This document shows positions 12,501-33,227 of a DNA stretch of 64,000 nt, in pieces (within the stretch, counting starts at the first letter, position 1; each line of letters opens with the position of its first letter). Made by a program: the position numbers and the translations under genes. Source of the stretch: a virus; IMG/VR virus record IMGVR_UViG_3300032309_000634, positions 1-64,000 of that record; one strand, given 5' to 3'. Under the pieces are notes generated by a model. That model did not search any database and was not told where the DNA came from. It worked only from the letters and a program-made list of their open reading frames with translations.

Positions 12501-13846
12501 TCATAATCAAATATGTCTAAGGTTCCAGTTGAAGCTAAAAGTTGTCCAACAGGCATTGATGTAATTCCAACATCTGATAAAATTTTTGTAATCTGAAAGT
12601 CGGTAACTTTGTCTGAAATGTCAACTACTAATCTTGGCGACATTTCAATTAAATCAAAGGTAGAGTCAAACTTATTCATTGACTCTACAACAATTCTTAT
12701 ACCACGAACATAATCAAATTCACGATAAACAATTGATTGATTAGCAGTACTTATAAAAAAATCTTGGTTTGTTAGATCTTTAATAAAATTAGTTTGAGAG
12801 TTAACTTCTTCTGAGCCAAGAAACCAACCATAATTTGGAACAAAAGTTTCATATTCTGATGTTGTTGAATTCCAAACATGAAATGTTCCAACATCTGATG
12901 GATTCTCTTGAACTAAATACGCATAACCATTATATGATTTTTGAGGAAGTAAGGTTGTTGATGAAATTTTTTCTGCGTACACAAAAATAGATTTATATTT
13001 ATCTGGAATGATTACTCCATAATGTAATTCTAAATATCCGTCTGGACCTATAATGCTAGATCCGTCTTGTCTTAAAGAATTTTCATTAAATAAATAAGCA
13101 TCTACCCAGTTATTATTTTTTAGATATTGAACTTTCCATCTTTTTGGTGTTGTTTGATTAATATTTCCGTGTAATGGATCTTCAATTGATCTAGATCCAT
13201 TGCTAAATGGTCCAAGATTTACTGTTCCTACATTTGTTTGCATCTTTACAATAAGCCTATTTGCTGGAACTGGATTTTTATATACAACAAAAGGAGCCGT
13301 ATCGTCAATATAATAGTTTCCATTTGTTATATTTTTTGCAATTCCATACTCACTATTGTTTTCTGTTCTATATGAAGTCCAATATTTAAATTGATCATGC
13401 CTTGAAGCCATATAGTATCTTGGTCGCTCAGCAAGTCTTGCTCCAGAATTAGCTAAAAACCTGTTATTAAAATATGATGCTTTATTTATTCCAGACCTAG
13501 GTCTAAATGGCTTAATGCAATCTTCTAAAGAATAGATCATCTTCATCTTATCTTTGGTAGATTTAAATGTTTGGGGGATTGGATTATCTATATCATCATT
13601 AAAACCACTATTAACTACTACGTTAGAATCAGTGGCTCCAGTATAGTACCCTCCAGAATCGAGCTGGTCAAAGTCTATAGGAAGTGTAAAAAACTTACTA
13701 GATGGGGTTGTGGGTCTATATCGGTAATTTCCCAGTTTAAAGACATTATCTGGCATATTCATGTTCCACTCAGCCAGAACCAAACTCTTTAGCCTAATGG
13801 TCGCTGATGCCTCTAGATGACCCTTCAGTGCCTCACTTACAAACAC
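9521..13846 (-). CDS. Large tail-tip / baseplate hub-like protein
   Basis: 1441 aa, second gene after the TMP; C-terminal PTLQLGDIVTL..FVIYNINYS hub-like ending. Confidence 0.7.
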   Translation of the reverse strand: MFVSEALKGHLEASATIRLKSLVLAEWNMNMPDNVFKLGNYRYRPTTPSSKFFTLPIDFDQLDSGGYYTGATDSNVVVNSGFNDDIDNPIPQTFKSTKDKMKMIYSLEDCIKPFRPRSGINKASYFNNRFLANSGARLAERPRYYMASRHDQFKYWTSYRTENNSEYGIAKNITNGNYYIDDTAPFVVYKNPVPANRLIVKMQTNVGTVNLGPFSNGSRSIEDPLHGNINQTTPKRWKVQYLKNNNWVDAYLFNENSLRQDGSSIIGPDGYLELHYGVIIPDKYKSIFVYAEKISSTTLLPQKSYNGYAYLVQENPSDVGTFHVWNSTTSEYETFVPNYGWFLGSEEVNSQTNFIKDLTNQDFFISTANQSIVYREFDYVRGIRIVVESMNKFDSTFDLIEMSPRLVVDISDKVTDFQITKILSDVGITSMPVGQLLASTGTLDIFDYDQAFNENNTSSIISKYIRKNIKFNFYEVVLDVNGFDYFVPIKTLYSEGVPQANDNGATLSLTLRDLFFFLESMPAPRLLTTETSLSYAVSLILDYIGFSNYSFKRTVGESEMVIPFFFIAPDQNVAEVLNELARASQSSMFFDENNNFIVMSKDYLMPTTSQRATDFVISGSNNQTDTGEIENVSSGKQPNLISIASQDKKIYNDGKINYTERYIQRSLGKLKQASLIDNERTWIYKPSLLWEVAGTENTKTINELASKQGSYVLGAMPLNSNLSSTEPQVVSGVLVNNIIDFGENIYWLTRNQGYFYSNGEIIKYDAVQYNITGTGNVWISNNEEYQRYFSSLPFNGKIYPTGLVRIYATPYYETIGNIVRLKNGPVVDHGRGQFNTIRTSHTAGADPYWSNNDYVRGCNMDSNYLFTNTLINNITRPTTVVGAAGVNDVLAKKTTRNGIIKNFMSTAYLTETSVNNLQSTQSGTVQSSALVMNGPSFKSTENPISFVSYVYKKLDNAYKHFGTRVRIVGKVENNSTKFQTPVGSTPYYQITGSKTDQNVNIGGAGGGIAVLLNPETNNGYYFEITALTENNIESYLKFDNAGNTNIAIDNIVFYKIKKDASSSKAIPVKLWGGLGKILIDDGSFTGQYRLAGEENPTVYDLSVEYEDIGKVRRFYLYINNKLIQIVDDTDPLPIYNNMALFIRGSSRCMFENVYALSQNYSQNTSFNVGETISKAFGDKDIDANESFRKYAMSGVVQSTYLGGISSQQPPKYNMYFEEFGSIMRECAYFDIKYDRAYPALYAQISPTFNRIKSYMVSGFQADSYGAEFLVFNSTDKAINLDETTGSFLRIQGITFTQDTTHELTVDEFFKKRSNMADPELTDTNQIISPFIEKEKYDRIRQSRMTYGKNEFSIDSQYIQTQDSAESLMNWIINKVMEPKKIVGANIFSIPTLQLGDIVTLDYKDSDGLDLVTADSTRFVIYNINYSRSQDGPSMTIYLSEV

Positions 13847-14491
13847 TTAAACCTCTTCCAGGGTTACGGATACATTCCAAAGATCCATGTTGGTACCGCC
13901 ACGCTTTTGAACAGAATATGAGAAATCAGATATATAGACTTCCATAATTTGGCTATACTGATTTAGATGATTAAACTGGTTTTGGTCTTCTGTAAAGTTT
14001 TTATATTTATCATATGATAGAAATATCCAAAAAGGTCCTTTATGGTTTTCATACCAGTCTAGAAGTTCTGCTCCACCTGCACCGCCATCTACTGTAAATT
14101 CTTGAGATGGGCTTTGACCTTTATAGGGGGATATTCCAGTTGTAATTCCAAAATCTGCAACATTGGGATATGCTCTTGATGGTAGATTATCCCATGATGT
14201 AGCAATTGTTATCTTATCTGCAATATGGTATGATCTCATTCTTCCATTAATTGTTCTTTCACGCTTTTCAATACGAATAGGCTTGAACTCAATAGGCTGT
14301 CTATTATGATCTGAGATTATTAAAAACTGGTCTATCTCTGAGGTTGCAGCATCTTCTGGTGCATTAGCCCCTACTTCATATCCAATTGGGACATAAAGAC
14401 CATTTGATAGTGTACCAGCATTGTTAGACCATAGCATTGCCTGTGGTCTTTGATACCTGCGTCTTCCAGATAGGTATGCTGCTGTTGCCAT
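13847..14491 (-). CDS. Distal tail (Dit-like) protein
   Basis: Immediately after the TMP; ends WNVSVTLEEV like tube-fold Dit proteins. Confidence 0.6.
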   Translation of the reverse strand: MATAAYLSGRRRYQRPQAMLWSNNAGTLSNGLYVPIGYEVGANAPEDAATSEIDQFLIISDHNRQPIEFKPIRIEKRERTINGRMRSYHIADKITIATSWDNLPSRAYPNVADFGITTGISPYKGQSPSQEFTVDGGAGGAELLDWYENHKGPFWIFLSYDKYKNFTEDQNQFNHLNQYSQIMEVYISDFSYSVQKRGGTNMDLWNVSVTLEEV

Positions 14492-17400
14492 TATCGTTGT
14501 CCTCTAACTCTTTGTCCATCAATATATTTAATCTTCTGCATTACTGTGCTAGCAATATCATCGGCATTTAAATTATTACCGTTGACATTTACACTTAAAC
14601 TATAATTATACACTGAAGAATCTGGAGACATACCACTATTTATCTTTGATAGATTCTTTACTCCATATGAATCTACTGCTGACTTTTTAATAACAAATTC
14701 TCCTGGGGTAAGCATAGCTGGGATAGTGTCAGTTCCCATAGCGTAACCACCTGAAGCAAATAATTGAGGAATTAGGCCACCAGAACTTGCTGTAATATAT
14801 CTATTCCATTTTGTTCCACCTGGCAAGTTAGGTAACCAAACTGGAACTCCATTAACTGCTAATCCTACTATATTGTTATTATTTAGCAAATTACCAGAAT
14901 ATGGCTGACCATCAACAGTAAAAAATTTTTGATTCGATGGGCCATAAGAACTAATTCCACCAGCCTTATCAACAAGTGCATCTTTACTATTTCCAACTTG
15001 ACCATGATTAGCGTAAAAGTCTTTGTAAGAATTTAGATAGTTAGCATCGTAGTTAGCATCTGCTCCCTTGGCAATGCTTTCCCTATCTCCTGTATATCCA
15101 CTATTAACGGCATCTGCTCTGGCTTCATATAATTGTTTATCGGTCATTGATGAATATTTTTTATATTCTGCTATTCCAGCTGCAATAGCTTCTTGTGCTG
15201 AAAGAAATTCTGTTGCTGCAGCATTAGCTGCATCAACTACTGTAGTAAGTGCTTCTGCAGTTTTGGTAGTTCCAGCAATTAAAGCATCTGAAGTTTTAAC
15301 TGAATAATCAGCATCTAAAGCGATAATACTGGCGTTATATGCTGCTAGATCAGCATCAAGCATAGCTTGATTTGCTGCTAAAGCTGCAGCCAAGGCTGCA
15401 TCAAATGCTGATTCTGCTGCTGCTATTGCGGCATCGGCTGCTGCAGTTGTTGCTGCGTCCGCTGCATCAAGTATTTTTTGAGCAGCGGCTTTTTCTGCTG
15501 CGGTCTTTGCGTCAGCTAGTGCTTTATCTGCTGCTTCTTTTTCTTCTGCTTTCTTTTTAGCAGCTGCAACAAGAGCATCAGCTTCTGCTTGAGCCTTATC
15601 AGATGCAGCTTGAGCATCTGCAATAATTTTATTTGCTGCTGCTGTAGCATCTGCAGTAATTTTATCGGCAGCAGCTTTTGCATCAGCTTCTGATTTAGCT
15701 ACATCTATTTTACTTCCAGAAGCAGTAACAATACTTTGTGCGGTGGTTGTAATTTTAGAGTCTTTTGCAGGGGTTGCAGCATAGGCCCCAATTTTTGTCA
15801 TGATACTTGTCCACTCAGCATTGATTGCTGTTGATGCTGCTAATAGCCCAGCAAAAGCGGTATCTAAATCTTTACGGGATAAATCATAAGCCTTTACCTT
15901 AGCTTCAATAGCAGTCCAAGCTTCTCTAGTTCTTCCAAGAACTTCAATTTCTTTTTCTAGTTTTTCAAGTCTTGCTTCAATGATTTCATTTTCATTATTT
16001 AAAGCAGCAATCATTCTTTCTTTATCTACAATATTATCTTTAGTAATTTTAGCAATTTCAGTTTCATAGGCTTGAACTTGCTCTAAAGCTATAGATCTTG
16101 CTTGTTCAAGAGTATAGATACTATTGGTTTTAGCTTTAATTTGATCCTGAATTGATAATTTTTTAGGATCAGTATCTAAACTATAAATCTTTTGAGAAAG
16201 TTCAAATTGTCTTTGTTTAATCTCTTCTTGTGTAAGAAGACCAAGTTCAATTTTATTTCCAGTTACTGGATCTATAGCAATTCTTGAAGCACTTAAAATT
16301 CCTTCTATATCATCTTTTCTTGATTTCTCTAAAGCTTTTTGTGAATTAGACTGAGCAAGTTCAACATTGCTTCTACGAACATCTTGCATTGCTTTAGCAG
16401 CAGCTGAGATGTCTCCACTTGAAAGTGCAGCAGCTAGTCCTATTCTATTTTCTTCTTGTTTTAAAATTGCATCATTAATATCTTTTATAGTTTCAAGAGC
16501 TTTTGCTTGTTTGTCATACTCTTTAGTTATTAGCTCTGATGCATTGTTGACAACATCTAAGTCATTTGATAGTGCGCTTAATTCATCCTGCAGTTCTTTA
16601 ATTGGTTCGTTAAACCTAACTTCAATTTCACGCTGTAAATCATTAATTTCTTTTTGATATTTATCAACCTTTTGGCTAATGTTAAGGGCAACCGATGCTT
16701 GAATATCATTAATCTTATATTGTAGTTGTTCAATCTGTGCTTCGTATGGTCTAAGTTGTGCTTGTAGTTCTTTGATTTTTGATTCATTAGCTGCAAGTTG
16801 TGCAACATCTTTGGTGCTTCTAGGATCTACACCAGTTCTAATTAGATCTTCCTGTACCGCAAACATTTGGTTAACCATGTCAAGACCAGAAGATGCAACC
16901 TGTCCAAATTCTCCCTTGTTAAAATTAATTTGAATGTCAATCAGTTTCTTAGATTCAATATCTTTTAGGTATTCGGAGATTGCTCCTGTTGAACCTTCAA
17001 TGGCTGCTATATCAATTTTGCCATTTTTAATGTTTTGCGTAAACTGCTTAAGCATTGCTGGGTTTCCAAGAACTGCATCAATTTGCTCTACAGAATATCC
17101 CATAGATTTCATTGCTTTGGCTACATCTGGAGTTTTCGCAAATACATCAAACTCTGCGTTCTTTGTAAGGGTGTCAGTTATAACCTGCATCTTTTCCATT
17201 GCGCTATTAGCTGCAGCAATGTCTTTAATAAACTTCTTCATTTCATCTGACCCTGCAGCACCAAGGGTTCCAGCAGCAATGGCTGAAGCAAGAGATTGAT
17301 CCTGAATTACTTTTAAGGCATCAGTAACTGACATTCCTGCATCTTTAAGAATCTTAAATGCTTCTTGTTGTTTTTTAATATTGTCTATGCTTTGTGCTGC

Positions 17401-20400
17401 CCCCATTTGAGCCATGCCTATATTTACTGAGTTAAAAGCTTCTGATAACCCCATTAACTCTTTAGACAGTCCAACAATATTGCCATCCTTCATTATGAAG
17501 GGAGTTTCTTTATCCTTTGTATTTGGATTTAAATCCATGCCCTGAAAAGCTTTAAACTCTTCTGCTGACATTCCAGATATTGCATCCATTAATACTGGAG
17601 AAAGATTGCCTTGTAACATTATTTGCTGTAAGCCGTTAAACTTTTCAAACATTCTACCAAGACCTTTTTCAGCATCTTTAGTATTTGCAAAAGCAGACAT
17701 TATAGACTTTAACGGATTAAGTGCGTCAAAAGCCTGATCTCTAAATAATTTTAGCTTCATTCCTAAATCATCAAGGAAGGATGTTGCACTCTTTAGTGTG
17801 TCTGCTGCTTCAGCAGCTGCTCTTTTCTTTGCATCATCTGCAGTTGCTGTGCCAAATATTTGTGGGAGAAAGCGATCAATTGCTTTTTTCTCTGCTGCTG
17901 CAATGTTCTTAGGATCTGCTTTAAATGCTTCTTTATCTAAAGCTTTCTGTCTTTCATAAGCTCTCCTACTCTCGGTGCTACCAAAAGCAACGTCTCCAGC
18001 ATATTGTGGATTCTTTTTTTCAAAAGCTGCTTCAAGTTCTCTGTCGATTATCTTATCAAAACTATCGCTTTGAGTTATTGACCCAACTGTAAACATTGCC
18101 TGGAACTGTAAGTTTTTTGGAAGTTTAGAGATTGCGTTCCAGTTGGTTATTGCTGAATCTAGGGTTAGATTTTTTCCTGCTCCACCTGCAGCTTCTTGCA
18201 TTTTAACAAGAGCTTCTAGAGTAATCTTTCCATCAGGAAATTGCTTTTTAAGTGCTGCAATCTCTTTTCCAACTGCTTTAAGTCTTGGAATGTCGGACTT
18301 GTTTGTTTCAAGGTCTATCTTAATTCCAATAAAGTCTGGAATCTTGCCAAGCTCTTCGACTGCAGACATAGTTGCATCTGCATCATCTTTGTTCATTGTT
18401 TTTATTCCAAGAAGTAGTTCTTTTTGATTTTCTTCTTCTGGAATTAGTGTAAGTATTGTAGAAAGTCTTTGTAGGCCTTCAGTTCCTTGAACTTTAACAA
18501 TAGCATTTAAATCTTTTGTAATGTCCCCACCAGTTTTAGTCATTGTAGAAACAAGGGTAGATGCTTCATTTGGAGTTAAAACATCTGAAGTTACTAATGC
18601 AGAGATCTCAAGGGTGACCTTATCATTTCCAATCTTGTCGAGCTGACTCTGTAGATTGTCCGCTTGTATTTTTAATGGAGCATTGTCTTTAAACTTTTCT
18701 TGCATTCCAACTTTATAAGCTTCCATATACTTATCACGTGCTTGCCCACGACCAGAACCAAGTGGGCTTAAAGTTTCCCCTAGTGATCTTTTTGCAACTT
18801 GATCATACCCAGAAGAAGCAGAACCAAGAATGTCTGCTTGATTTTCTCTTAGTGTTTTTAATCCAGAATCCTTTTTAGAAAGTAGATCGGCTATTTGAGA
18901 ATCTATCTCTGCACGTTCTTTTTCTGTTTTTAATGTTTTCTTTTTAATTTCTAAGTTTGCAATTGCTGAATCGTATTGTGAAGATAGTGCATCGATACTT
19001 CCCTGAGATGCACTTAAATTTTGTGCAACAAGACCTTGCATGATTCCCGCTGCTTTTCCTATTGCTGCTTTTTCTTTACCCTTTTGCCAACTACGAATAG
19101 CTGTTTCAATACCGCCAAAAATAACAGTTGATACTGCTGCTCCAACTAGTGCTGCTGGCACACCAAAACCTGTTGCGCCTACCGCTGCAGATCCAGCAGT
19201 ACCTGCAACTCTTGCTGCTTTTGCAACTTTTAGTGCTGTTCCAATTTTTCCTGATCCTCCTGCACGAGCAAGGGCTGCTTCTTGAGAAAGAAGTGAAGCG
19301 GCACCTACGCCACCTTGAACCATTCTTCCTGCTTGAATTCCAGCTCTTGCTGCAAGGAGTCCGCCACCGATTCCACCTACTGCTAGTTGCCCAAACTCTC
19401 CCTTATTAACCCCAACTTGTTGCTTAGTAACTCGGTTTAAATTGTCAAGAGCAGCCTGTTGTAGATTTTTTCCAGTATTTATTAAATCAACTTGAACTTG
19501 TAATGGATTATTAACAAGATTTTCTCCATTAGGTCCAAGTAACTGAATTAGCCTTCCTCTTACGTCTAGCTCTAGTCTTGCATCTTTTAAGTTTCTGGTT
19601 AGTGCGATTGCAATTGATTCAGCTTGGTCATTAGTTAATACGCCCTGGGATACTGCAGTTCCTAATTGATTTACTAAAGAGTCAACTGCTGATCCTGTAC
19701 CCAAGGTTTTTACTGTTGTTTCAAAACTAGACTTTAGGTTTTTACCAAAATCACTGGTTTCTAAAATGTTATTTCCAAATTCAATACTTACTGGAACTAG
19801 GTCAGTATTTCTTCCAGCTCTTTTTGCTTGCTCTACTTGTGTAACAGACATTGTGTTTGTGATCTTACCAAGAGCTTCAAGCTGATTGGTAGTCATAGTC
19901 ATTGCTTCTGCTTGTTTTTGTCCTTCAATTATATTCCGTTTAATTGTTGAAGATTGAATTTTAAATACCGCAGCAAGTGAAAGTGCTGCTGCGCCAGCAA
20001 TTTTTAAAGGTGAATTAAATATTGACATAAACATTGGAATCAAAGATGCCACAGAAATTGCAACCATATTTTTAGAAAGAAGTTGTCCTGCTGCTGAGTC
20101 AGGCTGGGATGCTGCAATACCTTGAGCAACCATAGGAAGCATCATTGCTGCCATGCCAATACCCATGGATTTTTGTGCAGTATTCATTCTATTTGCTTGA
20201 CGCATATTTATGCGTTCTTCAGGAGTCGCAGTTCTTGTTACTCCCTTATCATCTGTTACAGTGTTTGATACATTGCCAAACCCATTAAGCCAGCCACGGA
20301 AACCTCTGGTTTTATCTTTTCCAAAAGACTCTGTTGTTCCAGATACAGCCTTGTCAAGTTTTTCAACCTTTGGGGTAGTTTTTTCAAACTTACTTCCAAG

Positions 20401-23400
20401 CTTATCAATTCTGTCGCCAAGTTTTTTAATTTTTGGTTTGTCAAAGAATTTATCAATAGCACGTGAGACTCTATCTTCTCCTGGTGCAACGGTTGGTGCT
20501 GTTGGCATTGGACCCCAGCCATCTCCCTTATCTCTCCATGATCCTGGATTGCCACCCCAAGGGCTTGGAGTAATATTTGAGTTTTCAAACCCAGGTATCG
20601 TATCACTAATCATTGATTTAATTAATGGCATATACTTTTGAGATTGCTTTGCTGGGATTACTGCTTCTCCTGGTGACAACATTGCTGGAACAATATCTCC
20701 CGCACCTTTTGGTCCAGGGACTGAGAATATACCGTTTGCAAATCCAGCAACTCTTTCAACAGTTATACCTTTAGGGCTAATGTCAGTTATTACAAACTTA
20801 CCGCCAAACATTCTTTCTGATTCTGGAACACCTTTTTGACTATACATATTTTTAAATAATGAATGTACTGGAATTACATCTTGGTTTTTAAAAGATGTTT
20901 TAACTGTAAATGGAATAACGTCTTTTTTAGTTATTGCTTGATCTCTTGTATTTTTTGCAAAACCACTAGCAATGGATTCTTCAGAACTCCAAGCAGATGT
21001 TCTCATATTAAATGGTTTTCCAACAAACTTACTTAATGCATCTCTTTGTTCAGCACCTTTTAGAGTTGTTAAAATTTTATAAATTTCACCAGAAATTTCA
21101 GGTGGCAGGGTTCCTAATTTTTTCTGATAATAGGAATTTCCAGACAATCCTGTTCCTCTAAAGAAAGTTCCAGACTCTTTTGTACGTAAAGATTTAGTTA
21201 AAGAATTATATTTTTTAAGACTAGTTACAGGATAATAACCATCTTTCCACAGTTTTACTAAAGCTTTGCCTAATAATTGTTTTGGTACTCCTGCTTTTAG
21301 AGCATTATCAATTGCTAAATTTGCCTCTTTGTCCTCAGAGTAAGTTCTTAGTGTTTTTATTGTTTTGTCATATTCTTCTTTTTGTTTTGCGCTTAGATCT
21401 TTAATTAAAGTATTTGACGCAAGTCTTCCAGATGGATTAAATACAGTTTTTGCTTTAGGAGATGCAATGGGTTTAGCTGTTAGTGGTATTCTACCAGCCA
21501 TGTATCCTGGAACGTCACCAGAAATCATTGATTGAATTAATGGTCTATACTTTGCAGACTGTTTAGCAGGAATAACTGCTTCTCCAGGAGATAGCATTGC
21601 AGGAACAATATCTCCTGCTCCCTTTGGACCTGGAACAGAGAATAAACCTTTATTTGCATAAATTAAATTATCTTGTCTAGATGCAGTTCCAAATTTTTCG
21701 TAATAATTTTTTTCAATTCTATAAGGTAGTGCTTTTTCTAGATATTTATCAAAATTTGTAAATGTTTCTGAACTGTTTTTCTTTGCATTTACTTGTGCTA
21801 ACAATGCCATAGCTTGAGCACGTGATTGTGGATGTTCTGCATTTCCATAGTAAACGAGAGCCTGATTCATGGCCTGAGTATCTTCAAACAAATATTCAGG
21901 GAGGTCGTCTTCTGCGTTACGCATTCGTTTTGCTGCTGGAGTTATATGACTTAAAGCTCTAGATGAATAAAACTTTGATACATCTCCAGTTTCTTTAATA
22001 TAACGTTGTAATGGCATGCTTGTGCCGTCAGGTAAAGTAATCTTTTTTGCTGGTTGCGTTATTGTTGCTAATACATCTGCAGGAAGAACTTCTTTTAGGT
22101 AGGCTTCTTCTTCATCAATAAACTGTTGTTGTTCTTTATATATTTTCTTATCTTTATAAAGACTTCTTCTATTTTTGGCGCTAGGTGTTACATTACTGCT
22201 TCTTCCTCTACCGCCTGACCCGAGAACGGAGCCAACCTCTGATGCTGTTACAGTTTTCCCTGATATTTTTCTTATGCCTCTTTCACCAAACATCTTAGCT
22301 TTAAAAGCTTCTAGGATTTGCTCATCATTTAATCCTTTTGATTTCCAATACATTTCATTTTCAGCAATTTTGTCTTCTACTGCTTTTAAATTTTTTGGTG
22401 TAACGGTAAACTTAATTCCGCCTAAATCAAACTCCGTGTTATCTCCTTGGAATCTTCTATTAATTCTTGATAACAAAGATCTAGAAACACTTGATTCTCC
22501 AGCTGAAAAAATACTCCTGGCTGCCGCTTCTCTTGCGCCTGAAACTCTTATCGCAGTTGCTGATGGACCGAAAGTTGGCATACGTCCAGCCATGTATCCT
22601 GGAACTATTCCGCCCTTAGCAAAACCATTACTTTGTGCCCATTTAGCAAAACCCTCCATGAAGTCTCTATCAGATAAGGATGCACCATGTCCTTTTTGTC
22701 TTGCTCTTAATGCAATTTCATCTTCTATTTTCTTTATTGCTGCAGGAGTTAATGCTTTCTTTGGATTAGCAACTACTGATGAATGAATACCATGAATTTC
22801 TCTCCAGTTGGCATCCCTAGCATCCTCTAAGCGTTTAATCATGTTTTGATAAATACCCTGCTCTTCTTTATTTAACTTAAAGCTTGCTATTGTTGCTCTA
22901 AGTTTTGGAAGAGTGTCATCGATCTCTTGTATCATTCTTGTACGGTATTCTTCTGCAGTCATTCCCCTTGGAATATCAGCTGTTGCTTCAGCAAAGAATC
23001 TCTTTGTATTTGAGCCTTTTACTCCAAGCAAGTTTATACGTGCTTGCTCTTCAATAGATGGCATTTCTTTTGAATATGTTCTAAACCCAGAAGCGGTATC
23101 AAAGACTCCAGCATTTCCTTGATCCACCACATTCTTACCAGATACGTTTGCAATCTGCAGATCTTTATCTCCTCTTACAGTAGAAGCTAAAAGCTGCGAG
23201 AAGTAATCATCTTTAGTAAAGACACCATCTGGTTTTGCAAACTCAGGGTTGTAAGGGGCTTCAGATACAATAATTTTTCTCTTCTTTTGTGGATCAGTTG
23301 GATCAATCATTGTACGAATTGTATGCTCTGGTGCTTTTAGTGGGAAGGCTTTGTTTGTAATAGTAGACATTCTTTCTTCTGCTAAAGCAGCAGTCTCATC

Positions 23401-25809
23401 AACATATGGCTTAACAAATACCTTAGTTCCATCTGGCTTTTGATACAATCCGCCAATTCCTTTAACAGGAAATGAGTGCCCTGTGGTTGCTTCAAGCTGA
23501 ACGCCAAAATCTGTTGGATCCATGTCAGCAAATCGACTTGCTTCAGTTCCTTTTCCAATTGACTCCATTGACAGTCTTGCTTTGCGTTGATCTGTAACAG
23601 CTTTAATAGTTTTTGGCATGCCCAGGAATAGTGGCAGCCTTCCAGCCATATGGCCTGGTAAAGTTCCGTCAATCATCTGTCCAATAAATGGTGCGTACTT
23701 CTTTGCCATATCAGCAGGGATAACGGCTTCTCCAGGAGTTAGAAGTGCTGGGGTAGTATCTTGATTCCCCGTTCCAGGAACACTTGTTACGCCTTTAGCA
23801 AAACGCCTTGGAGGGGTGACTCTAGCAACGCTTGGCATAAACATTCCTGGGTTTGTGCTAGCAAAACTAGACATTGCAACTTTAGCTTCTCTATACGTAT
23901 TTGTTAAGGCAACAAGACTTGCTGACTCAAGGACGTATGCTGCAGATAATGCTTTGTGAGATGTTGCAAGGCTGTTAGATATTGCAATATTTTCTAACTC
24001 TTCATTAGTTAAATATTGTGTTCCAAGAGCTGCATCTTTAGATCCATAGGCTAAGCTTTGGAAACCTTTGCGAATAAGGTTAAACATTTTCATTAAGTTA
24101 GCTAAACCATTAGCAACAAGACCAACAGTCATAAGAAGGACTGGACCAATACCAGCAACAGCTGCTATAATAATTGCTACTGCTTTTTTAATTCCTTCAG
24201 GTGCGTTGTTAAATTTATCAAATAATTTAACAAAAAACTCAATTACTGGTGTTAAAACTTTTGCAAACAATTCACCTACTGGAGCAATAGAAGCTTTGAG
24301 TTTTTCAATAGCTGCTTGCATCTTATACATTGGTGAAGATTCTTGCGTTTTTAGTTCTCGCTGAGACAATAAAGCTAATTCTTCTGCTGAGGCAGAAGCC
24401 ATTTTTAAGACTCTACTTGCTTGACTTCCTTCTTTTGTTACGTTATTTAAAAGAGCAGAGATTCTTGCAAACTGGTATTTACCAAAAACTTTTTCAATTG
24501 TTTGTGCTTTTTGCAAATCTGTCAAAGGCTGAAGAGCTTCAGCAAATGATAATACTGTATTTCTTAGGTTACCTTGATTGTCTTGAACAATGCCCTTAAG
24601 GTTAATACCAAGTTTTGCTGCTGATTCAGATGCAGCTTTAGATGGATTAATAAGAGATGCTAGGCCAGACTTAAGTGCGTTAGCACCTTGCTCTGCGCTA
24701 ATTCCACCTTCTTTCATTGCTGTCAAGAAGAAAGCTAAATCTTCTACATTGCCACCAAGTTGTTTAATAATTGGGGCAACTTTTGGAAGTGCGTTAGATA
24801 AATCTTCAAGACTTAAAACGGTTTGGTTTTCAACAGAGTTAAGGAAATCCATTGTTTTTCCAAGTTCCTCAGATCCAATAGAAAAAGCATTTTGCAGTGC
24901 AATAGTTGTTTCTAATGCTTTATCTTGTGCCACGCCACCTAGGACTGCAAGCTTATTTGCCTGCTTTACAACTTCCTCTAATTGCTTTCCAGAATTACCA
25001 GCTGCAGCAGCATCGGCAGCCATCTTAATTGTTTCAGAAACTTTAAGCCCATACTTTGTATATTCTTTTGCAAGATCTCTTATATTTTTAAGAGCTTTAT
25101 CACTTTCGCCTTCAGTAGTAAATATGTCACCATAAACTTTTCTAAATCTTATTGCCTGAGTTTCAATTTCTTTAAATGATTTAATTGCTGATCCTGCAAA
25201 CATAGCCAAGGGAATTGTAAAACCAACCATAAGCTGACGACCAGCCCATTGTGTATTTTTACCAAAGTTAAGAAGTTTTGTAGATCCATCATCAAGTAGT
25301 TTATTAAATATTTGTTGGCGTTGAATCGCCATAGACATATTAGTTAATTGATCATTATAGTTAAGATTTTTAGGAGTAACTCGCATTGAGTTTAATGCGC
25401 CAGAAGCATCTTTACCTAATTGAACATACTGGCTTTGAAGTGCCTTTACTCTTTTTTCAACTAAACTACTAATTGTTGAAAACTCTTTAGCATAATTTTT
25501 GCCAAATGTTTTTGTTGAAGCCATGCCATATCGGTAATACTCACGAAGTGATAATTTGCCAGACTCTAAACTACGAGAAAACTGCTCTGTAGCAGTTGAC
25601 ATCTTGCCCATAGAGGCATTAAACATGCCTGTAGCATTAATGTTATGTAAAAGTGATTTTGAAAAATCGGCTTGGGCTAGTGATGCAGCCTTTGTACCGA
25701 CAATCATGGAACGGTTAAACGCAGATATCTGCTTGTCTAGCCCACGTAGTGCGGACATAGCTTGCGTTGTGTCAATATTAATTAAAATATTGCTGTTTAT
25801 ATCTGCCAT
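14491..25809 (-). CDS. Tape measure protein with internal enzyme-like cassettes
   Basis: 3772 aa after the tail chaperones; TP901-type TMP region (about aa 200-460), hydrophobic segments, long coiled coils, C-terminal GTDTIPAMLTPGEFVI motif; globular inserts at about aa 670-1740. Confidence 0.93.
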   Translation of the reverse strand: MADINSNILINIDTTQAMSALRGLDKQISAFNRSMIVGTKAASLAQADFSKSLLHNINATGMFNASMGKMSTATEQFSRSLESGKLSLREYYRYGMASTKTFGKNYAKEFSTISSLVEKRVKALQSQYVQLGKDASGALNSMRVTPKNLNYNDQLTNMSMAIQRQQIFNKLLDDGSTKLLNFGKNTQWAGRQLMVGFTIPLAMFAGSAIKSFKEIETQAIRFRKVYGDIFTTEGESDKALKNIRDLAKEYTKYGLKVSETIKMAADAAAAGNSGKQLEEVVKQANKLAVLGGVAQDKALETTIALQNAFSIGSEELGKTMDFLNSVENQTVLSLEDLSNALPKVAPIIKQLGGNVEDLAFFLTAMKEGGISAEQGANALKSGLASLINPSKAASESAAKLGINLKGIVQDNQGNLRNTVLSFAEALQPLTDLQKAQTIEKVFGKYQFARISALLNNVTKEGSQASRVLKMASASAEELALLSQRELKTQESSPMYKMQAAIEKLKASIAPVGELFAKVLTPVIEFFVKLFDKFNNAPEGIKKAVAIIIAAVAGIGPVLLMTVGLVANGLANLMKMFNLIRKGFQSLAYGSKDAALGTQYLTNEELENIAISNSLATSHKALSAAYVLESASLVALTNTYREAKVAMSSFASTNPGMFMPSVARVTPPRRFAKGVTSVPGTGNQDTTPALLTPGEAVIPADMAKKYAPFIGQMIDGTLPGHMAGRLPLFLGMPKTIKAVTDQRKARLSMESIGKGTEASRFADMDPTDFGVQLEATTGHSFPVKGIGGLYQKPDGTKVFVKPYVDETAALAEERMSTITNKAFPLKAPEHTIRTMIDPTDPQKKRKIIVSEAPYNPEFAKPDGVFTKDDYFSQLLASTVRGDKDLQIANVSGKNVVDQGNAGVFDTASGFRTYSKEMPSIEEQARINLLGVKGSNTKRFFAEATADIPRGMTAEEYRTRMIQEIDDTLPKLRATIASFKLNKEEQGIYQNMIKRLEDARDANWREIHGIHSSVVANPKKALTPAAIKKIEDEIALRARQKGHGASLSDRDFMEGFAKWAQSNGFAKGGIVPGYMAGRMPTFGPSATAIRVSGAREAAARSIFSAGESSVSRSLLSRINRRFQGDNTEFDLGGIKFTVTPKNLKAVEDKIAENEMYWKSKGLNDEQILEAFKAKMFGERGIRKISGKTVTASEVGSVLGSGGRGRSSNVTPSAKNRRSLYKDKKIYKEQQQFIDEEEAYLKEVLPADVLATITQPAKKITLPDGTSMPLQRYIKETGDVSKFYSSRALSHITPAAKRMRNAEDDLPEYLFEDTQAMNQALVYYGNAEHPQSRAQAMALLAQVNAKKNSSETFTNFDKYLEKALPYRIEKNYYEKFGTASRQDNLIYANKGLFSVPGPKGAGDIVPAMLSPGEAVIPAKQSAKYRPLIQSMISGDVPGYMAGRIPLTAKPIASPKAKTVFNPSGRLASNTLIKDLSAKQKEEYDKTIKTLRTYSEDKEANLAIDNALKAGVPKQLLGKALVKLWKDGYYPVTSLKKYNSLTKSLRTKESGTFFRGTGLSGNSYYQKKLGTLPPEISGEIYKILTTLKGAEQRDALSKFVGKPFNMRTSAWSSEESIASGFAKNTRDQAITKKDVIPFTVKTSFKNQDVIPVHSLFKNMYSQKGVPESERMFGGKFVITDISPKGITVERVAGFANGIFSVPGPKGAGDIVPAMLSPGEAVIPAKQSQKYMPLIKSMISDTIPGFENSNITPSPWGGNPGSWRDKGDGWGPMPTAPTVAPGEDRVSRAIDKFFDKPKIKKLGDRIDKLGSKFEKTTPKVEKLDKAVSGTTESFGKDKTRGFRGWLNGFGNVSNTVTDDKGVTRTATPEERINMRQANRMNTAQKSMGIGMAAMMLPMVAQGIAASQPDSAAGQLLSKNMVAISVASLIPMFMSIFNSPLKIAGAAALSLAAVFKIQSSTIKRNIIEGQKQAEAMTMTTNQLEALGKITNTMSVTQVEQAKRAGRNTDLVPVSIEFGNNILETSDFGKNLKSSFETTVKTLGTGSAVDSLVNQLGTAVSQGVLTNDQAESIAIALTRNLKDARLELDVRGRLIQLLGPNGENLVNNPLQVQVDLINTGKNLQQAALDNLNRVTKQQVGVNKGEFGQLAVGGIGGGLLAARAGIQAGRMVQGGVGAASLLSQEAALARAGGSGKIGTALKVAKAARVAGTAGSAAVGATGFGVPAALVGAAVSTVIFGGIETAIRSWQKGKEKAAIGKAAGIMQGLVAQNLSASQGSIDALSSQYDSAIANLEIKKKTLKTEKERAEIDSQIADLLSKKDSGLKTLRENQADILGSASSGYDQVAKRSLGETLSPLGSGRGQARDKYMEAYKVGMQEKFKDNAPLKIQADNLQSQLDKIGNDKVTLEISALVTSDVLTPNEASTLVSTMTKTGGDITKDLNAIVKVQGTEGLQRLSTILTLIPEEENQKELLLGIKTMNKDDADATMSAVEELGKIPDFIGIKIDLETNKSDIPRLKAVGKEIAALKKQFPDGKITLEALVKMQEAAGGAGKNLTLDSAITNWNAISKLPKNLQFQAMFTVGSITQSDSFDKIIDRELEAAFEKKNPQYAGDVAFGSTESRRAYERQKALDKEAFKADPKNIAAAEKKAIDRFLPQIFGTATADDAKKRAAAEAADTLKSATSFLDDLGMKLKLFRDQAFDALNPLKSIMSAFANTKDAEKGLGRMFEKFNGLQQIMLQGNLSPVLMDAISGMSAEEFKAFQGMDLNPNTKDKETPFIMKDGNIVGLSKELMGLSEAFNSVNIGMAQMGAAQSIDNIKKQQEAFKILKDAGMSVTDALKVIQDQSLASAIAAGTLGAAGSDEMKKFIKDIAAANSAMEKMQVITDTLTKNAEFDVFAKTPDVAKAMKSMGYSVEQIDAVLGNPAMLKQFTQNIKNGKIDIAAIEGSTGAISEYLKDIESKKLIDIQINFNKGEFGQVASSGLDMVNQMFAVQEDLIRTGVDPRSTKDVAQLAANESKIKELQAQLRPYEAQIEQLQYKINDIQASVALNISQKVDKYQKEINDLQREIEVRFNEPIKELQDELSALSNDLDVVNNASELITKEYDKQAKALETIKDINDAILKQEENRIGLAAALSSGDISAAAKAMQDVRRSNVELAQSNSQKALEKSRKDDIEGILSASRIAIDPVTGNKIELGLLTQEEIKQRQFELSQKIYSLDTDPKKLSIQDQIKAKTNSIYTLEQARSIALEQVQAYETEIAKITKDNIVDKERMIAALNNENEIIEARLEKLEKEIEVLGRTREAWTAIEAKVKAYDLSRKDLDTAFAGLLAASTAINAEWTSIMTKIGAYAATPAKDSKITTTAQSIVTASGSKIDVAKSEADAKAAADKITADATAAANKIIADAQAASDKAQAEADALVAAAKKKAEEKEAADKALADAKTAAEKAAAQKILDAADAATTAAADAAIAAAESAFDAALAAALAANQAMLDADLAAYNASIIALDADYSVKTSDALIAGTTKTAEALTTVVDAANAAATEFLSAQEAIAAGIAEYKKYSSMTDKQLYEARADAVNSGYTGDRESIAKGADANYDANYLNSYKDFYANHGQVGNSKDALVDKAGGISSYGPSNQKFFTVDGQPYSGNLLNNNNIVGLAVNGVPVWLPNLPGGTKWNRYITASSGGLIPQLFASGGYAMGTDTIPAMLTPGEFVIKKSAVDSYGVKNLSKINSGMSPDSSVYNYSLSVNVNGNNLNADDIASTVMQKIKYIDGQRVRGQR
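20585..23803 (-). repeat. Repeated ~55-aa linker within the TMP: full copies about 23631-23803, 21484-21660 and 20585-20745; short copy 22577-22627; related C-terminal copy about 14660-14790
   Basis: FSVPGPKGAGDIVPAMLSPGEAVIPAKQS is identical in two copies; VPGTGNQDTTPALLTPGEAVIPA in another; PG(H/Y)MAGR(L/M/I)P occurs three times. Confidence 0.9.
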
Positions 25810-25839: not shown

Positions 25840-26166
25840 TTATTCTTGTGAAGCAAGTGCAAGTAATGCTGAATCATTTAGATTGATTCCTGATGCTGCT
25901 TCAATGATCTTGTACACTGTTGGCAGATCAACTAGATCTTCCAAATCAGCAACAGAGTAGTCTGCTTCTGGCTTGTATTGTTTCATTGCAATGTGTGCAC
26001 AATGGATTAAGATATCCATTGATTTTTCGTTATCTGTTGCAACCGCTGTTAGTCCTTCAAAAGATTTCATAAATGGTCTAAGTAAAGAGATCTTAAGTGG
26101 TTGTGCATCAATTTTTGTTCCGTCAATAAAGACGACTTCATTTTTTTCTTTTGGCGTTGTTGCCAT
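25840..26166 (-). CDS. Tail assembly chaperone, short (G-like) paralogue
   Basis: Immediately before the TMP; start MATTP at 26166 after AGGAGG; homologous to the N-terminal half of 26213-26905. Confidence 0.75.
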   Translation of the reverse strand: MATTPKEKNEVVFIDGTKIDAQPLKISLLRPFMKSFEGLTAVATDNEKSMDILIHCAHIAMKQYKPEADYSVADLEDLVDLPTVYKIIEAASGINLNDSALLALASQE

Positions 26167-26192
26167 ATATAACCTCCTGTGGTTGTATGTCA

Positions 26193-26201
26193 ATTATAGC
26201 A
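26193..26201 (-). promoter_or_regulatory. Extended -10 promoter TGCTATAAT for the short chaperone and TMP
   Basis: Intergenic TGnTATAAT upstream of SD AGGAGG. Confidence 0.6.
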
Positions 26202-26212
26202 TAAAACGCTGT

Positions 26213-26905
26213 TTAGGTTAAGTTTTCGTAATCTAATCCCATCCCAATTCCAAAACCAGCTTTTTGGGCGTTCACTCCTTGAAGTGATAAAACATCATTT
26301 GAATCTGAGGTCTGTCCACCACTAAATACCCTAGCTTTCATATCTTCCCACTCTTTTTGTCCTCTATCTTTTCCGCTTTCTGCGTCAAGATCAACACCTT
26401 GCATAGCAGCAAGAAATTTCTTTTCTGAATAATCTAAATCTCTTACAGCTTCTAAAGTAATCATTAATTCTGACATAGAGAGAGATCTTTCTAGTTCGTC
26501 ATAGTCTTTCCATATGCCCAGCAAAAATACTTCAGACTCTAGTTTTGCTAAATCTAACGTCTCCCAGGTTTCCCCACTTTTTTGTGCTTGATCTTTTACG
26601 GGCTCTTCTAATTTTCTATTTATCTTAATACCAGCAGATATATCTAGTATTTTGTATATAGTTGGCATATCAACATTGTCTTCTACATCTTCTACTGTTT
26701 TAGATATTTCAGGATAATATTGTTTCATGCAAATTCTTACACATTCCACAAGAGTGACTATAGCCTCATCATCATTTTTAGATTTTTTAATATCATCAAA
26801 TGCCACCATAAATTCTCTAAGATACTTAATCTTAAGTGGAGATATTTCTAGCTCTGTTCCATTAAACAAATAAACATTGTCTGTTGTGTATACTTTAGTT
26901 GCCAT
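26213..26905 (-). CDS. Tail assembly chaperone, long (GT-like) form
   Basis: After the tail tube gene; G-like N-terminal half plus a C-terminal helical domain. Confidence 0.75.
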   Translation of the reverse strand: MATKVYTTDNVYLFNGTELEISPLKIKYLREFMVAFDDIKKSKNDDEAIVTLVECVRICMKQYYPEISKTVEDVEDNVDMPTIYKILDISAGIKINRKLEEPVKDQAQKSGETWETLDLAKLESEVFLLGIWKDYDELERSLSMSELMITLEAVRDLDYSEKKFLAAMQGVDLDAESGKDRGQKEWEDMKARVFSGGQTSDSNDVLSLQGVNAQKAGFGIGMGLDYENLT

Positions 26906-26976: not shown

Positions 26977-27615
26977 TTAAGACAATGTATCTCCGAAGGT
27001 ACGATCAACGATCTTACCATATGAGCCAGATGTATCCTCTGGAAGTAGACGGAATGAAACTTCAAACATTGAAGCTTCGTCACGCTTTGCAGAAACTGTT
27101 ACGTTTTCGATTGACAAGGCACGGTATGCTGTGTAAACACGCTCTACATCTGCAGATGTGGCACAATCACCTGTTCCTGGTCCGACAGCAACAATTCCAC
27201 GCTCTACTGGACATTCGCCAAGTTCACCTGCGGAAAGGTTTAATACCCGTCCTGAGTGAGTTGCTTTATTTCCAGTTAGCTGATCGTCGTTAAAAGCAAG
27301 TGCTAGTAACAAGTTTTCAAGTGTAGCTTCAGCAAAGGCTGTTGCAAGGTTAACTTGCATTCCTTGCTTGTAAAGCTTAGCAACGTCAAGAATCTGGTCA
27401 ACTTGAACTTCACCGAAGTCAGGTTGGAACTGCATTTCAAGACCGTTCATTGTATAACCAACATTAGTATAAGCTGCATCATTTGAGAGAGTCTCTCTAA
27501 ATGATACTTCAGTGCTAAATGATTCTAGTGTTGATGGGGTCAAAGTTGTATCTGCAACGAATAGGGCTGCTGCTCCAACGATGATGTTAGTTGAACTTCC
27601 ACGACTATATGACAT
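26977..27615 (-). CDS. Major tail (tube) protein
   Basis: NIIVGAA..VGYTMNGLE..AEATLENL..FEVSFRLL tube-protein pattern; own promoter and terminator. Confidence 0.85.
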   Translation of the reverse strand: MSYSRGSSTNIIVGAAALFVADTTLTPSTLESFSTEVSFRETLSNDAAYTNVGYTMNGLEMQFQPDFGEVQVDQILDVAKLYKQGMQVNLATAFAEATLENLLLALAFNDDQLTGNKATHSGRVLNLSAGELGECPVERGIVAVGPGTGDCATSADVERVYTAYRALSIENVTVSAKRDEASMFEVSFRLLPEDTSGSYGKIVDRTFGDTLS

Positions 27616-31916: not shown

Positions 31917-32474
31917 TTAGTTGAATAGGTCGGTTGATGTGAGGAAACGACCGCCCCATAGGGATTTTTGAACCTTAAGTGGTTCGAACTGTACGATCTC
32001 GCCTAGATCGCCAGACTTGCGGAAAGCTGTGTCTGCTACTACGTCATCCACTCGCTTGCCAAACTCATCAAATGTTCCCTTAACTTCCTTAACCTCACTA
32101 GTTACGGATTCAAGAGACTTGCTTAGTGTCATAATCTGCTCATGTAAAGATTTTACAGTTGAAGCGAGATCGCCAAAGGCATTAGTTAGAGAATCCTTAA
32201 TGTCTGAAACTGCTTTAGCAATTTCTTCGTTAGATGCTGTTGCATTTGCTTCAAGGCTGTCTGCCTTATCTGCAGTATTCTCTACAGTCTCAGCTGCATT
32301 AGCAACTGGAGACTCTGCACCACCATCAGTTAATTCTACAGCAATAGCTTTTTCAGCTACTGGTGCTTCTTCAACTACTACAGATGTTTTTTCAACAACT
32401 GTTGGCTGTGCCTCTGGAGTAACCTCAACTTCTTCAACTGCAGATTGGACTGCTTTTTCTGTTGCTTCTGTCAT
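31917..32474 (-). CDS. Nested in-frame scaffold protein (internal start)
   Basis: AAGGAGGT-7 nt-ATG (MTEATEK) at the protease/scaffold boundary. Confidence 0.65.
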   Translation of the reverse strand: MTEATEKAVQSAVEEVEVTPEAQPTVVEKTSVVVEEAPVAEKAIAVELTDGGAESPVANAAETVENTADKADSLEANATASNEEIAKAVSDIKDSLTNAFGDLASTVKSLHEQIMTLSKSLESVTSEVKEVKGTFDEFGKRVDDVVADTAFRKSGDLGEIVQFEPLKVQKSLWGGRFLTSTDLFN

Positions 32475-33227
32475 TGGATTTACCTCCTTAGTAATCTTAA
32501 TTGTACTAATGCCTTTAGCACTATCAACTAAGAACTTTATCATATTTGCTTTTTCTAAATCATCTTTTTCAACAAAACCAATGTTCTTCATTTCTTGTCC
32601 AGTTGCAGGACTTACCTGTGTCTCTTCTTCAGAAACAATAACTAATCCAGACTCTTTGTCATAGAATACATTTTCTAAAACAGTGTTATCTGCTTTAATC
32701 ATATCGACACCATCAACCTTCTCAACTGACATAATGCTAGCAAATTGGTTTGCTGGACTATCAACAAGAGATAGCTCAATGAGGTCATAGTCCTTGATAA
32801 TTCTAATTTGCTTTTCCATTGTATCATCATATGCGTCATCCCACTTGTTCATTCGTCCCCCGATTGAAAAACCAGTGTATGTACCATCAAGAACTTTTTC
32901 CCAAGCATCTTGGGCACCCTTAGAAATATAAGTAGAAACGTATATTCCCTTATAAAACTTCTTTGATTCTGGATCAAAATATTTTTCTTCTTTAAATGAG
33001 ATCATCTTACCAACAGCAGATGGTTGGTGCATTTCTCTAATGTTTCCACGAAACTTTGCAAAAGCACTCATGCTAGCTTCGGTAGTTACAATGTCCATTT
33101 GCTTGTCAATATTGTCTAGAGACGCAAAACCAGAAACTAGTCTTCGCTCTTGATCTACCTTGCCAAAAGGCATTGATAGACGAACGTTGTCGCCGTCTGT
33201 AACCCAGGAAGCTTTATTTATAATCAT
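31917..33227 (-). CDS. Prohead protease fused to a scaffold domain
   Basis: GFAS..D..D, REMH, GFSIGG, ELSLVDSPAN (HK97-type protease); acidic and coiled-coil C-terminal half. Confidence 0.88.
   Translation of the reverse strand: MIINKASWVTDGDNVRLSMPFGKVDQERRLVSGFASLDNIDKQMDIVTTEASMSAFAKFRGNIREMHQPSAVGKMISFKEEKYFDPESKKFYKGIYVSTYISKGAQDAWEKVLDGTYTGFSIGGRMNKWDDAYDDTMEKQIRIIKDYDLIELSLVDSPANQFASIMSVEKVDGVDMIKADNTVLENVFYDKESGLVIVSEEETQVSPATGQEMKNIGFVEKDDLEKANMIKFLVDSAKGISTIKITKEVNPMTEATEKAVQSAVEEVEVTPEAQPTVVEKTSVVVEEAPVAEKAIAVELTDGGAESPVANAAETVENTADKADSLEANATASNEEIAKAVSDIKDSLTNAFGDLASTVKSLHEQIMTLSKSLESVTSEVKEVKGTFDEFGKRVDDVVADTAFRKSGDLGEIVQFEPLKVQKSLWGGRFLTSTDLFN

Follow-up and report, generated by a model that had tools for sequence, protein, structure and literature searches.

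Tape measure proteins (TMPs) of phages are known as tail rulers and pore formers and sometimes as carriers of cell-wall hydrolases, such as those embedded in the TMPs of mycobacteriophage TM4 and of T5 (pb2). It is established that the siphophage TMP is expelled at infection and inserted into the envelope (PMC10770324, discussion). The single published cytoplasm-acting enzyme fused to a TMP is the virion RNA polymerase of Thermus phage P23-45, which forms the N-terminal part of gp96, a TMP of 5,002 amino acids (aa), and transcribes the pre-early genes; this polymerase part was detected in virions and was proposed to act at the TMP pore during DNA entry (PMC10770324). Here we analyze a predicted kinase module, hereafter cassette 1, located inside a giant TMP encoded in a stretch of viral DNA of 64,000 nucleotides (nt), which is referred to as the window and corresponds to positions 1 to 64,000 of the IMG/VR record IMGVR_UViG_3300032309_000634 (a linear virus contig of 83,790 bases with the completeness estimated at 77%).

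Among the kinases to which the module can be compared, PI3/PI4-kinases are recognized by the motifs DRHxxN and DFG, and both PI3K and HipA carry a His two residues after the catalytic Asp. CotH, an atypical protein-kinase-like enzyme of Bacillus, possesses two essential Asp residues, D228 and D251 (PMC7821199). Polyvalent proteins of phages and conjugative elements are large and multi-domain, are thought to be delivered together with DNA, and include kinases and ADP-ribosyltransferases with a cassette-like variability; a kinase family described among them lacks the entire C-terminal subdomain, keeps one His conserved and carries an insertion ahead of the Asp (Iyer et al., 2017, PMC5512222). 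Tape measure proteins are nowhere mentioned in that paper. Sle1, a TMP-related effector of a contractile injection system of Streptomyces, was described as a scaffold with swappable functional domains (PMC13277306). No published description of a kinase inside a TMP was found in the literature at the level of search results and of passages of PMC7824862, PMC8876498, PMC5512222 and PMC9341999.

The gene that carries cassette 1 is a TMP gene, as is shown by computation from its PF10145 and other TMP profiles, its hydrophobic segments and its place between tail chaperones and distal tail proteins. Eleven PHROG tape-measure families match the N-terminal part of the protein (best stretches within aa 1-791), the top one being phrog_10030 (aa 51-684). 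The gene, its core domain and the module are arranged as follows:

14491..25809, minus strand: TMP gene (P0001), a single open reading frame (ORF) of 3,772 aa
24481..25077, minus strand: TMP core domain PF10145 (PhageMin_Tail), aa 245-443, Pfam E 5.9e-29
22576..23637, minus strand: kinase cassette (cassette 1), aa 725-1078, 354 aa, delimited by family and boundary comparisons
22762..23529, minus strand: kinase-fold core, aa 761-1016 (model residues ~37-292), from the AlphaFold2 model and the aligned ranges of the fold matches

The module thus delimited slightly exceeds the interval 22630-23630 given in a preliminary description of the window, which had been made from the DNA letters and their translations and had seen there an atypical, HipA- or PI3/4-kinase-like enzyme delivered with the virion.

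By prediction, cassette 1 is a member of the protein-kinase-like (PKL) fold superfamily. The AlphaFold2 model, built on an alignment of the query with 30 diverse relatives (A1, 31 members, the relatives being 28-50% identical to the query), reached a mean predicted local distance difference test score (pLDDT) of 89.9 and a predicted template modelling score of 0.84, with 275 of the 349 residues at pLDDT ≥90. Strands 46-50, 63-66 and 72-77 of the model, then helix 81-97 and strands 106-111 and 121-128 follow one another in the order of protein kinases, and the C-lobe, within residues 142-286 (including helices 195-286), is helical; the bilobal PKL layout, with an N-lobe sheet, an alphaC helix and a helical C-lobe, is present in the predicted model. 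In a VIA-align fold search of 48,161 PDB representative chains, the best match was CotH of Bacillus cereus (5jda_A; Z 12.0, root-mean-square deviation 3.8, 214 aligned residues, 7% identity), a Z value that is above the background, not far above it, the best Z of models without a clear match being typically 7-8. The next matches were MavQ (9.9), PI4KIIalpha (9.9), Golgi casein kinase (9.3), CtkA (8.9) and HipA (8.4), along with Fam20 proteins, PI4KIIIbeta, ATM, Vps34 and actin-fragmin kinase, and kinase-fold proteins made up 50 of the 50 matches listed. When VIA-align was applied to the top 1,000 chains of Foldseek, CtkA scored 10.6, PI4KII 10.2, LepB 9.6 and MavQ 9.5; over both searches, HipT reached 8.9 and HipA 8.4-8.9. 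Matches with E≤0.001 in BFVD numbered six, and all were to large proteins of phages annotated as ADP-ribosyltransferase, portal or PI3/4-kinase-domain protein. The ESM-Atlas neighbours bearing a name, LepB_N, PI3_PI4_kinase and actin-fragmin kinase, scored 0.83-0.84 and are to be taken as leads only. Structure prediction followed by a fold search had been put forward in the preliminary description as one way to check the kinase; the model turned out to be confident, and a kinase fold was predicted.

The conservation of the predicted active site was counted in 246 aligned sequences, i.e., the query and those 245 of its 264 relatives that cover the core. The residues in question are placed as follows:

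23449..23481, minus strand: Gly-rich nucleotide loop GHSFPVKGIGG, aa 777-787, between the first two model strands
23410..23412, minus strand: Lys800 in VFVKP, third N-lobe strand (model strand 72-77, residue 76), 246/246
23377..23379, minus strand: Glu811, alphaC position (model helix 81-97, residue 87), E in 238 and Q in 8 of 246
23146..23172, minus strand: catalytic loop GDKDLQIAN, aa 880-888, with Asp883 (245/246) and Asn888 (246/246)
23122..23124, minus strand: Asp896 of D-x-G, metal-binding Asp position, after two short strands (model residue 172), 246/246

Within the Gly-rich loop, G777 and G787 are present in all 246 sequences and S779 in 245. The catalytic loop directly follows model helix 142-155, with D883 and N888 as model residues 159 and 164; G898 is kept in 243 and Q872 in all 246 sequences, and the middle residue of D-x-G varies (V, A, G, T, P or Q). 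The invariant columns of A1 include K800, E811, N888 and D896. A salt bridge between Lys800 and Glu811 would be expected, this pairing being judged from secondary-structure positions and not from coordinates. Since the canonical Lys/Glu/Asp/Asn/Asp set is kept in 238-246 of the 246 sequences, the residue conservation, as far as the alignment can tell, is the pattern of a putatively active enzyme and not that of a pseudokinase or a spacer.

All the motifs on which the preliminary description relied, that is KGIGGLY (aa 783-789, 23443-23463), KVFVKP (aa 796-801), AEE (aa 810-812, 23374-23382), GDKDLQIAN (aa 880-888) and VVDQG (aa 894-898), do lie where it had placed them, inside one TMP ORF, and the residues it had singled out are the conserved ones both in the A1 columns and in the counts over 246 sequences. 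It had further pointed to a Gln in place of the usual His of the catalytic loop. Gln885 is indeed found in the sequence of the window; it is not a special substitution, because position 885, two residues after D883, is variable in the family (S 143, G 39, Q 37, A 12, K 9, H 4), whose catalytic loop reads D-L-x-x-x-N without a conserved His.

The Gly-rich loop of HipA contains a regulatory autophosphorylated Ser, Ser150. The invariant Ser in the Gly-rich loop of cassette 1 (GHSFP, aa 777-781, 23467-23481; S779) recalls it, and by analogy S779 may be an autophosphorylation site.

The assignment to HipA- or PI3/4-kinase-like enzymes held for the predicted fold and was not borne out for the family. 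The kinase fold is that of an atypical group which includes HipA and CtkA as well as PI3/4-kinases (CtkA 10.6, PI4KII 10.2, HipA 8.4-8.9); membership in these families found no support, as there is no Pfam or NCBIfam match, the hhalign comparison of A1 with Escherichia coli HipA was not significant (probability 0.3%, E 0.18), and the best neighbour is CotH. As membership in either family is thus unsupported, cassette 1 is treated as a new family: judging from the model, it is best called a putative, previously undescribed kinase family, nearest in shape to CotH.

Among 1.84 billion representative proteins, the cassette family comprised 165 proteins at E≤1e-3 and 140 at E≤1e-30, nearly all of 2,000-4,400 aa. 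By a word-indexed search among proteins of 2,074-6,601 aa, at least 600 clusters hold the cassette; of the 120 clusters listed out of these 600, 114 contain PF10145, and their names are mostly "TP901 family phage tail tape measure protein", with a few "hypothetical protein", "LysM repeat protein" or blank, and none is named a kinase. The 23 matches shorter than 1,300 aa were mostly pieces that start inside the domain or that include TMP linkers, and no clear case of a stand-alone kinase domain was noted among them. A tblastn search of the cassette against 50,697 phage records gave no match.

Several kinase-bearing TMPs (P0255, P0262, P0263, P0214, P0228 and P0155) additionally possess CHAP (PF05257), LysM (PF01476) or OmpA (PF00691) domains; hence, cell-wall-directed and kinase modules coexist in one TMP.

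It is shown by computation that the module is optional, that its boundaries are precise and that phages exchange it. Among the 120 closest TMPs, selected by their first 690 aa (64-100% identity), 84 contain the kinase module and 36 do not, and between close relatives (P0304 vs P0306, P0377 vs P0345) its presence or absence appears as a clean difference of 283-285 aa. A conserved (S/L)LGMP peptide marks the start of the module, each end of which carries a copy of a short G-(I/V)-V peptide. The TMP P0153 is 98-100% identical to that of the window in the N-terminus, the linker, the C-terminal tail of the cassette and cassette 2, whereas its kinase core (aa 745-1000 of the window TMP) is only 74% identical to that of the window and 85-88% identical to those of P0154-P0156, the contrast between flanks and core indicating a recent allele swap between almost identical backbones. 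Distant TMPs show the reverse order, with kinase cores 59-60% identical and N-terminal 540 aa 39-41% identical. The kinase begins at residues 600-1399 in 197 of 200 full-length TMPs; a hydrophobic segment precedes it in all 200, and another one follows it, at the threshold used, in 148.

The kinase module is under purifying selection, with ratios of nonsynonymous to synonymous substitution rates (dN/dS) of 0.22-0.27 in comparisons of the window with two IMG/VR relatives (three loci, of which L004 and L005 gave identical values). For L003, the kinase had dN/dS 0.27 at dS 0.27 and the N-terminal 540 aa of the TMP had dN/dS 0.088 at dS 0.80; for L004/L005, the respective values were 0.22 at dS 0.83 and 0.079 at dS 0.89. 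That the dS of the kinase is below that of the backbone in the L003 pair points to a common origin of the module more recent than that of the backbone.

Cassette 1 is the first of three non-helical cassettes that occupy aa 725-1700, after the TMP core and a hydrophobic segment, with repeated joints between them:

24103..24195, minus strand: hydrophobic, transmembrane-like segment upstream of the cassettes, aa 539-569 (Kyte-Doolittle, 19-residue window, maximum 2.55)
23632..23668, minus strand: upstream joint, copy of a 37-nt repeat encoding ...PGHMAGRLP (direct-repeat family D3)
22576..22612, minus strand: downstream joint, copy of the 37-nt repeat encoding ...VPGYMAGRMP (reference copy of D3)
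21610..22575, minus strand: cassette 2, aa 1079-1395, without a Pfam or PHROG match
20695..21489, minus strand: cassette 3 with ADP-ribosyltransferase-like motifs (motif pattern), aa 1441-1705
20011..20067, minus strand: next hydrophobic segment, downstream of the cassettes, aa 1915-1933 (hydropathy)

A further hydrophobic segment of the TMP lies at aa 2213-2238. The imperfect 37-nt direct repeats, 1,056 nt apart, bracket the kinase cassette; at the protein level, the joint peptide PGEAVIP is found at aa 692, 1408 and 1713, and PG(H/Y)MAGR at aa 719, 1071 and 1435. Cassette 2 is common only to P0002 and P0153 (87-98%) among the close relatives compared. Cassette 3 gave no Pfam or PDB sequence match and is held by only 10 giant proteins, the window TMP included. 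In its main matched stretch, TFFRG, TS(A/S)WS and E-x-E (ESE, EQE, EDE, EAE, EFE) are found in 10 of the 10 relatives listed, in the order Arg / Ser-x-Ser / Glu-x-Glu of ADP-ribosyltransferases, and such an ADP-ribosyltransferase-like cassette would fit a set of host-directed effectors. Both cassettes are rare partners of the kinase, occurring in 3 (cassette 2) and 4 (cassette 3) of 264 kinase-bearing proteins.

Considering the predicted fold, the conserved residues and the exchange of the module, we tentatively prefer the reading, which we rate somewhat short of an even chance, that cassette 1 is a catalytically competent atypical kinase, an optional, recombining module lodged between two hydrophobic segments in the N-proximal third of the TMP, which would phosphorylate a host component after delivery at infection. 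Synthesized late, the TMP would be packaged into the tail; upon infection it would be expelled and would insert into the host envelope, its N-proximal, cassette-bearing stretch leaving last, just before the DNA. This stretch would then arrive at the cytoplasmic side and fold there, and the kinase would draw on the ATP of the host and phosphorylate one of its components, most likely a protein, ahead of any phage gene expression, with host takeover or counter-defence as the outcome. A protein substrate is favoured because CotH, CtkA, HipA, Golgi casein kinase and actin-fragmin kinase are protein kinases; the fold scores of lipid kinases almost match theirs. We infer that cassette 1 binds ATP and transfers phosphate; its presence in the virion, its ejection, topology and target are presumed likewise, and delivery with the virion is suggested by the position of the domain inside the TMP.

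A number of facts weigh against this reading. The lumen of a siphophage tail tube is narrow and should not accommodate several copies of a folded domain of ~35 kDa, so that the domain would need to be unfolded during passage, cleaved off or held at another place; as ATP is available only in the cytoplasm, the cassette stretch must moreover get across the membrane. Late in infection, the producer cell likewise contains the TMP, and the kinase could act there instead. The absence of the module from 36 of the 120 closest TMPs makes it dispensable, and its dN/dS is about three times that of the N-terminal core of the TMP (0.08-0.09), i.e., it is less constrained. The placement of the residues on the fold rests on the secondary-structure string of the model and not on a superposition onto a solved active site. 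Finally, profile and sequence searches with the cassette (for the libraries, aa 725-1073, 349 aa) did not recognize the domain: Pfam gave no family at E≤10 for the cassette and none for the 31 members of A1, NCBIfam and PHROGs gave no match, and phmmer against PDB sequences gave nothing credible. In the fold search by Foldseek, no match to the PDB was obtained at E≤0.001, the best one being CtkA at 7.3e-3 and the matches listed being kinases. The sole weak row for the cassette, PADLOC PbeC (E 0.017), and the best hit of the A1 profile among PDB sequences, a leucine-rich-repeat protein (E 0.072), were both taken as chance.

With delivery as above, the substrate might instead be a lipid of the membrane or a sugar of the envelope, located at the inner membrane face, as for PI4K, MavQ, LepB and WaaP, in which case phosphorylation would promote the formation of the pore or the entry of DNA, or modify the envelope. 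PI4KII (10.2), MavQ and PI4KIIalpha (9.9 each) and LepB (9.6) are indeed among the best fold matches, LepB_N and PI3_PI4_kinase (0.84) are the nearest named ESM-Atlas clusters, if only as leads, and the adjoining hydrophobic segments would put the module at the membrane. However, the top match CotH, as well as CtkA, HipA, Golgi casein kinase and actin-fragmin kinase, are protein kinases, most bacteria lack phosphoinositides, and the searches for a host point to no candidate lipid. Gaps of 1-2 in Z do not discriminate protein kinases from lipid kinases, and we consider a lipid or sugar substrate unlikely. An action in the producer cell on structural proteins of the phage (the TMP, chaperones or tube), which would make the kinase an assembly or maturation factor, as CotH is for the spore coat, would be free of the translocation problem, because the TMP is synthesized in a cell that contains ATP. 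The best structural match (CotH, Z 12.0) is itself a kinase that patterns a protein shell via coat-protein phosphorylation (PMC7821199). Yet 36 of the 120 closest TMPs form tails without the module, and its position and allele vary freely, which fits an accessory effector better; the neighbouring cassette 3 has ADP-ribosyltransferase-like motifs typical of host-directed effectors, and no Ser-rich repeat substrate like CotB or CotG was noticed, although no systematic search was made. A role in assembly therefore appears to us improbable.

The fold by itself shows no function, and the module could be an ATP-binding or ATPase switch, could perform another chemistry, such as nucleotidyl transfer, or could simply be a length or spacer module of the ruler, with no phosphotransfer to a substrate in any of these cases. 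Nucleotidyl transfer on a kinase fold is known from SelO-type enzymes; the spacing between the catalytic and the metal-binding Asp is short (13 residues vs 23 in CotH), the loop His of PI3K and HipA is absent, and the module lengthens a protein that sets tail length. Against this stand the full set of Lys, Glu, Asp-x4-Asn and Asp-x-Gly in 238-246 of 246 sequences, needless in a spacer, and dN/dS of 0.22-0.27, i.e., selection on the protein sequence, and such a role of the module seems rather improbable as well. It is hardly conceivable that the motifs arose by chance in a helical stretch of the TMP devoid of enzymatic function: this would agree with the failure of profile libraries to recognize the region, but the confident mixed alpha/beta model, the kinases in all 50 fold matches listed and the invariance or near-invariance of the motif residues (n=246) refute it as far as computation goes.

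A wider proposal may be considered, which we regard as possible, with more doubt than confidence: that the TMP of this large clade of uncultured phages serves as a modular platform for protein injection, whose exchangeable enzymes would refold and modify host targets seconds after adsorption and whose kinase alleles would be swapped, among phages that are almost identical, in an arms race with host defence. The stretch between the first and the later hydrophobic segments would be passed to the cytoplasmic side before the DNA, and the cargo, i.e., the kinase of the new family, the module of cassette 2 and the module with ADP-ribosyltransferase motifs, would act before phage transcription.

As to the neighbourhood, the TMP gene is flanked by a chaperone-like pair (25840-26905) and a minor tail protein (9521-13846); other neighbours are a portal (33267-34874), a head protease (31917-33227) and a protein with an Ig domain at the tube position (26977-27615). 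The two adjacent ORFs upstream of the TMP gene (25840-26193 and 26213-26905, minus strand) both match phrog_10504, the longer one also phrog_10474, and look like a duplicated chaperone-like pair at the place where the G/GT frameshift pair is usual. An ORF of 1,250 aa (35263-39015, minus strand) between the portal region and the ribonucleotide reductase gave no PHROG match at E≤1e-5. In a megablast search with the whole TMP gene, the sole nucleotide-level similarity to sequenced phages was located at 25207-25263 (TMP aa 183-201), with matches of 53-58 nt, 86-91% identical, in the TMP genes of 10 Streptomyces phage records (Moab, Annadreamy, Faust and others). Neither WhiB nor tRNA was found in the viral record. 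The single match among genome contigs (L001, CAZCDW010000001.1, 85,019 bp), a contig of a metagenome-assembled genome labelled "uncultured Bifidobacterium sp.", encodes a TMP of 3,160 aa with a kinase 51% identical to that of the window. Bifidobacterium was rejected as a clue to the host, the label being probably a binning artefact because the guanine-cytosine content is merely 39-44%.

With a conserved and catalytically intact TMP kinase in at least 600 clusters, the delivery of ATP-dependent effectors by siphophage tails would be common; such a kinase also raises the physical question of how a domain of 35 kDa passes through, or is stored in, the narrow tail tube. As no profile library recognizes the domain, it also enlarges the known set of atypical kinases.

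In comparison with described kinases, the predicted cassette resembles most closely CotH (5jda; PF08757), the best structural match with its atypical protein-kinase-like fold, from which it differs by the aligned identity of 7%, the lack of a PF08757 match and an Asp-Asp spacing of 13 instead of 23 residues; moreover, CotH is a free-standing Bacillus protein acting on coat proteins, while the cassette is a module inside a phage TMP. It resembles the toxin kinases HipA, HipT and CtkA in its predicted fold (CtkA 10.6, HipT 8.9, HipA 8.4-8.9), at Z scores similar to those of PI4K and below that of CotH, and has the Asp-x4-Asn loop and the Ser in the Gly-rich loop in common with them; it lacks a match to the HipA_C and HipA_N hidden Markov models, does not conserve the loop His and is not free-standing, and no antitoxin partner was noticed beside the TMP gene, for which no dedicated search was made. 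PI3/PI4-type kinases, including LepB and MavQ of Legionella, are similar in fold (Z 9.5-10.2) and provide the nearest named ESM-Atlas clusters, whereas the cassette has no PF00454 match, no His of the DRH motif and no helical solenoid, and carries D-x-G instead of DFG. The kinases of polyvalent proteins, as far as the passages describing them go, are set apart by the C-lobe helices 195-286 of the cassette model and by its lack of a conserved His.

As to the carrier, Sle1 likewise presents a TMP scaffold as a modular carrier of a variable domain, but none of its domains is a kinase, and the injection system of which it is part is bacterial. The phage TMPs with embedded enzymes (TM4, T5 pb2) are similar in carrying a variable functional domain; their hydrolases attack peptidoglycan outside the cytoplasm, independently of ATP. 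The nearest precedent is gp96 of P23-45, with its cytoplasm-acting enzyme in the N-proximal part of a giant TMP. That enzyme, however, is an RNA polymerase in a fixed N-terminal fusion and is experimentally verified, whereas cassette 1 is an optional, repeat-bounded predicted kinase.

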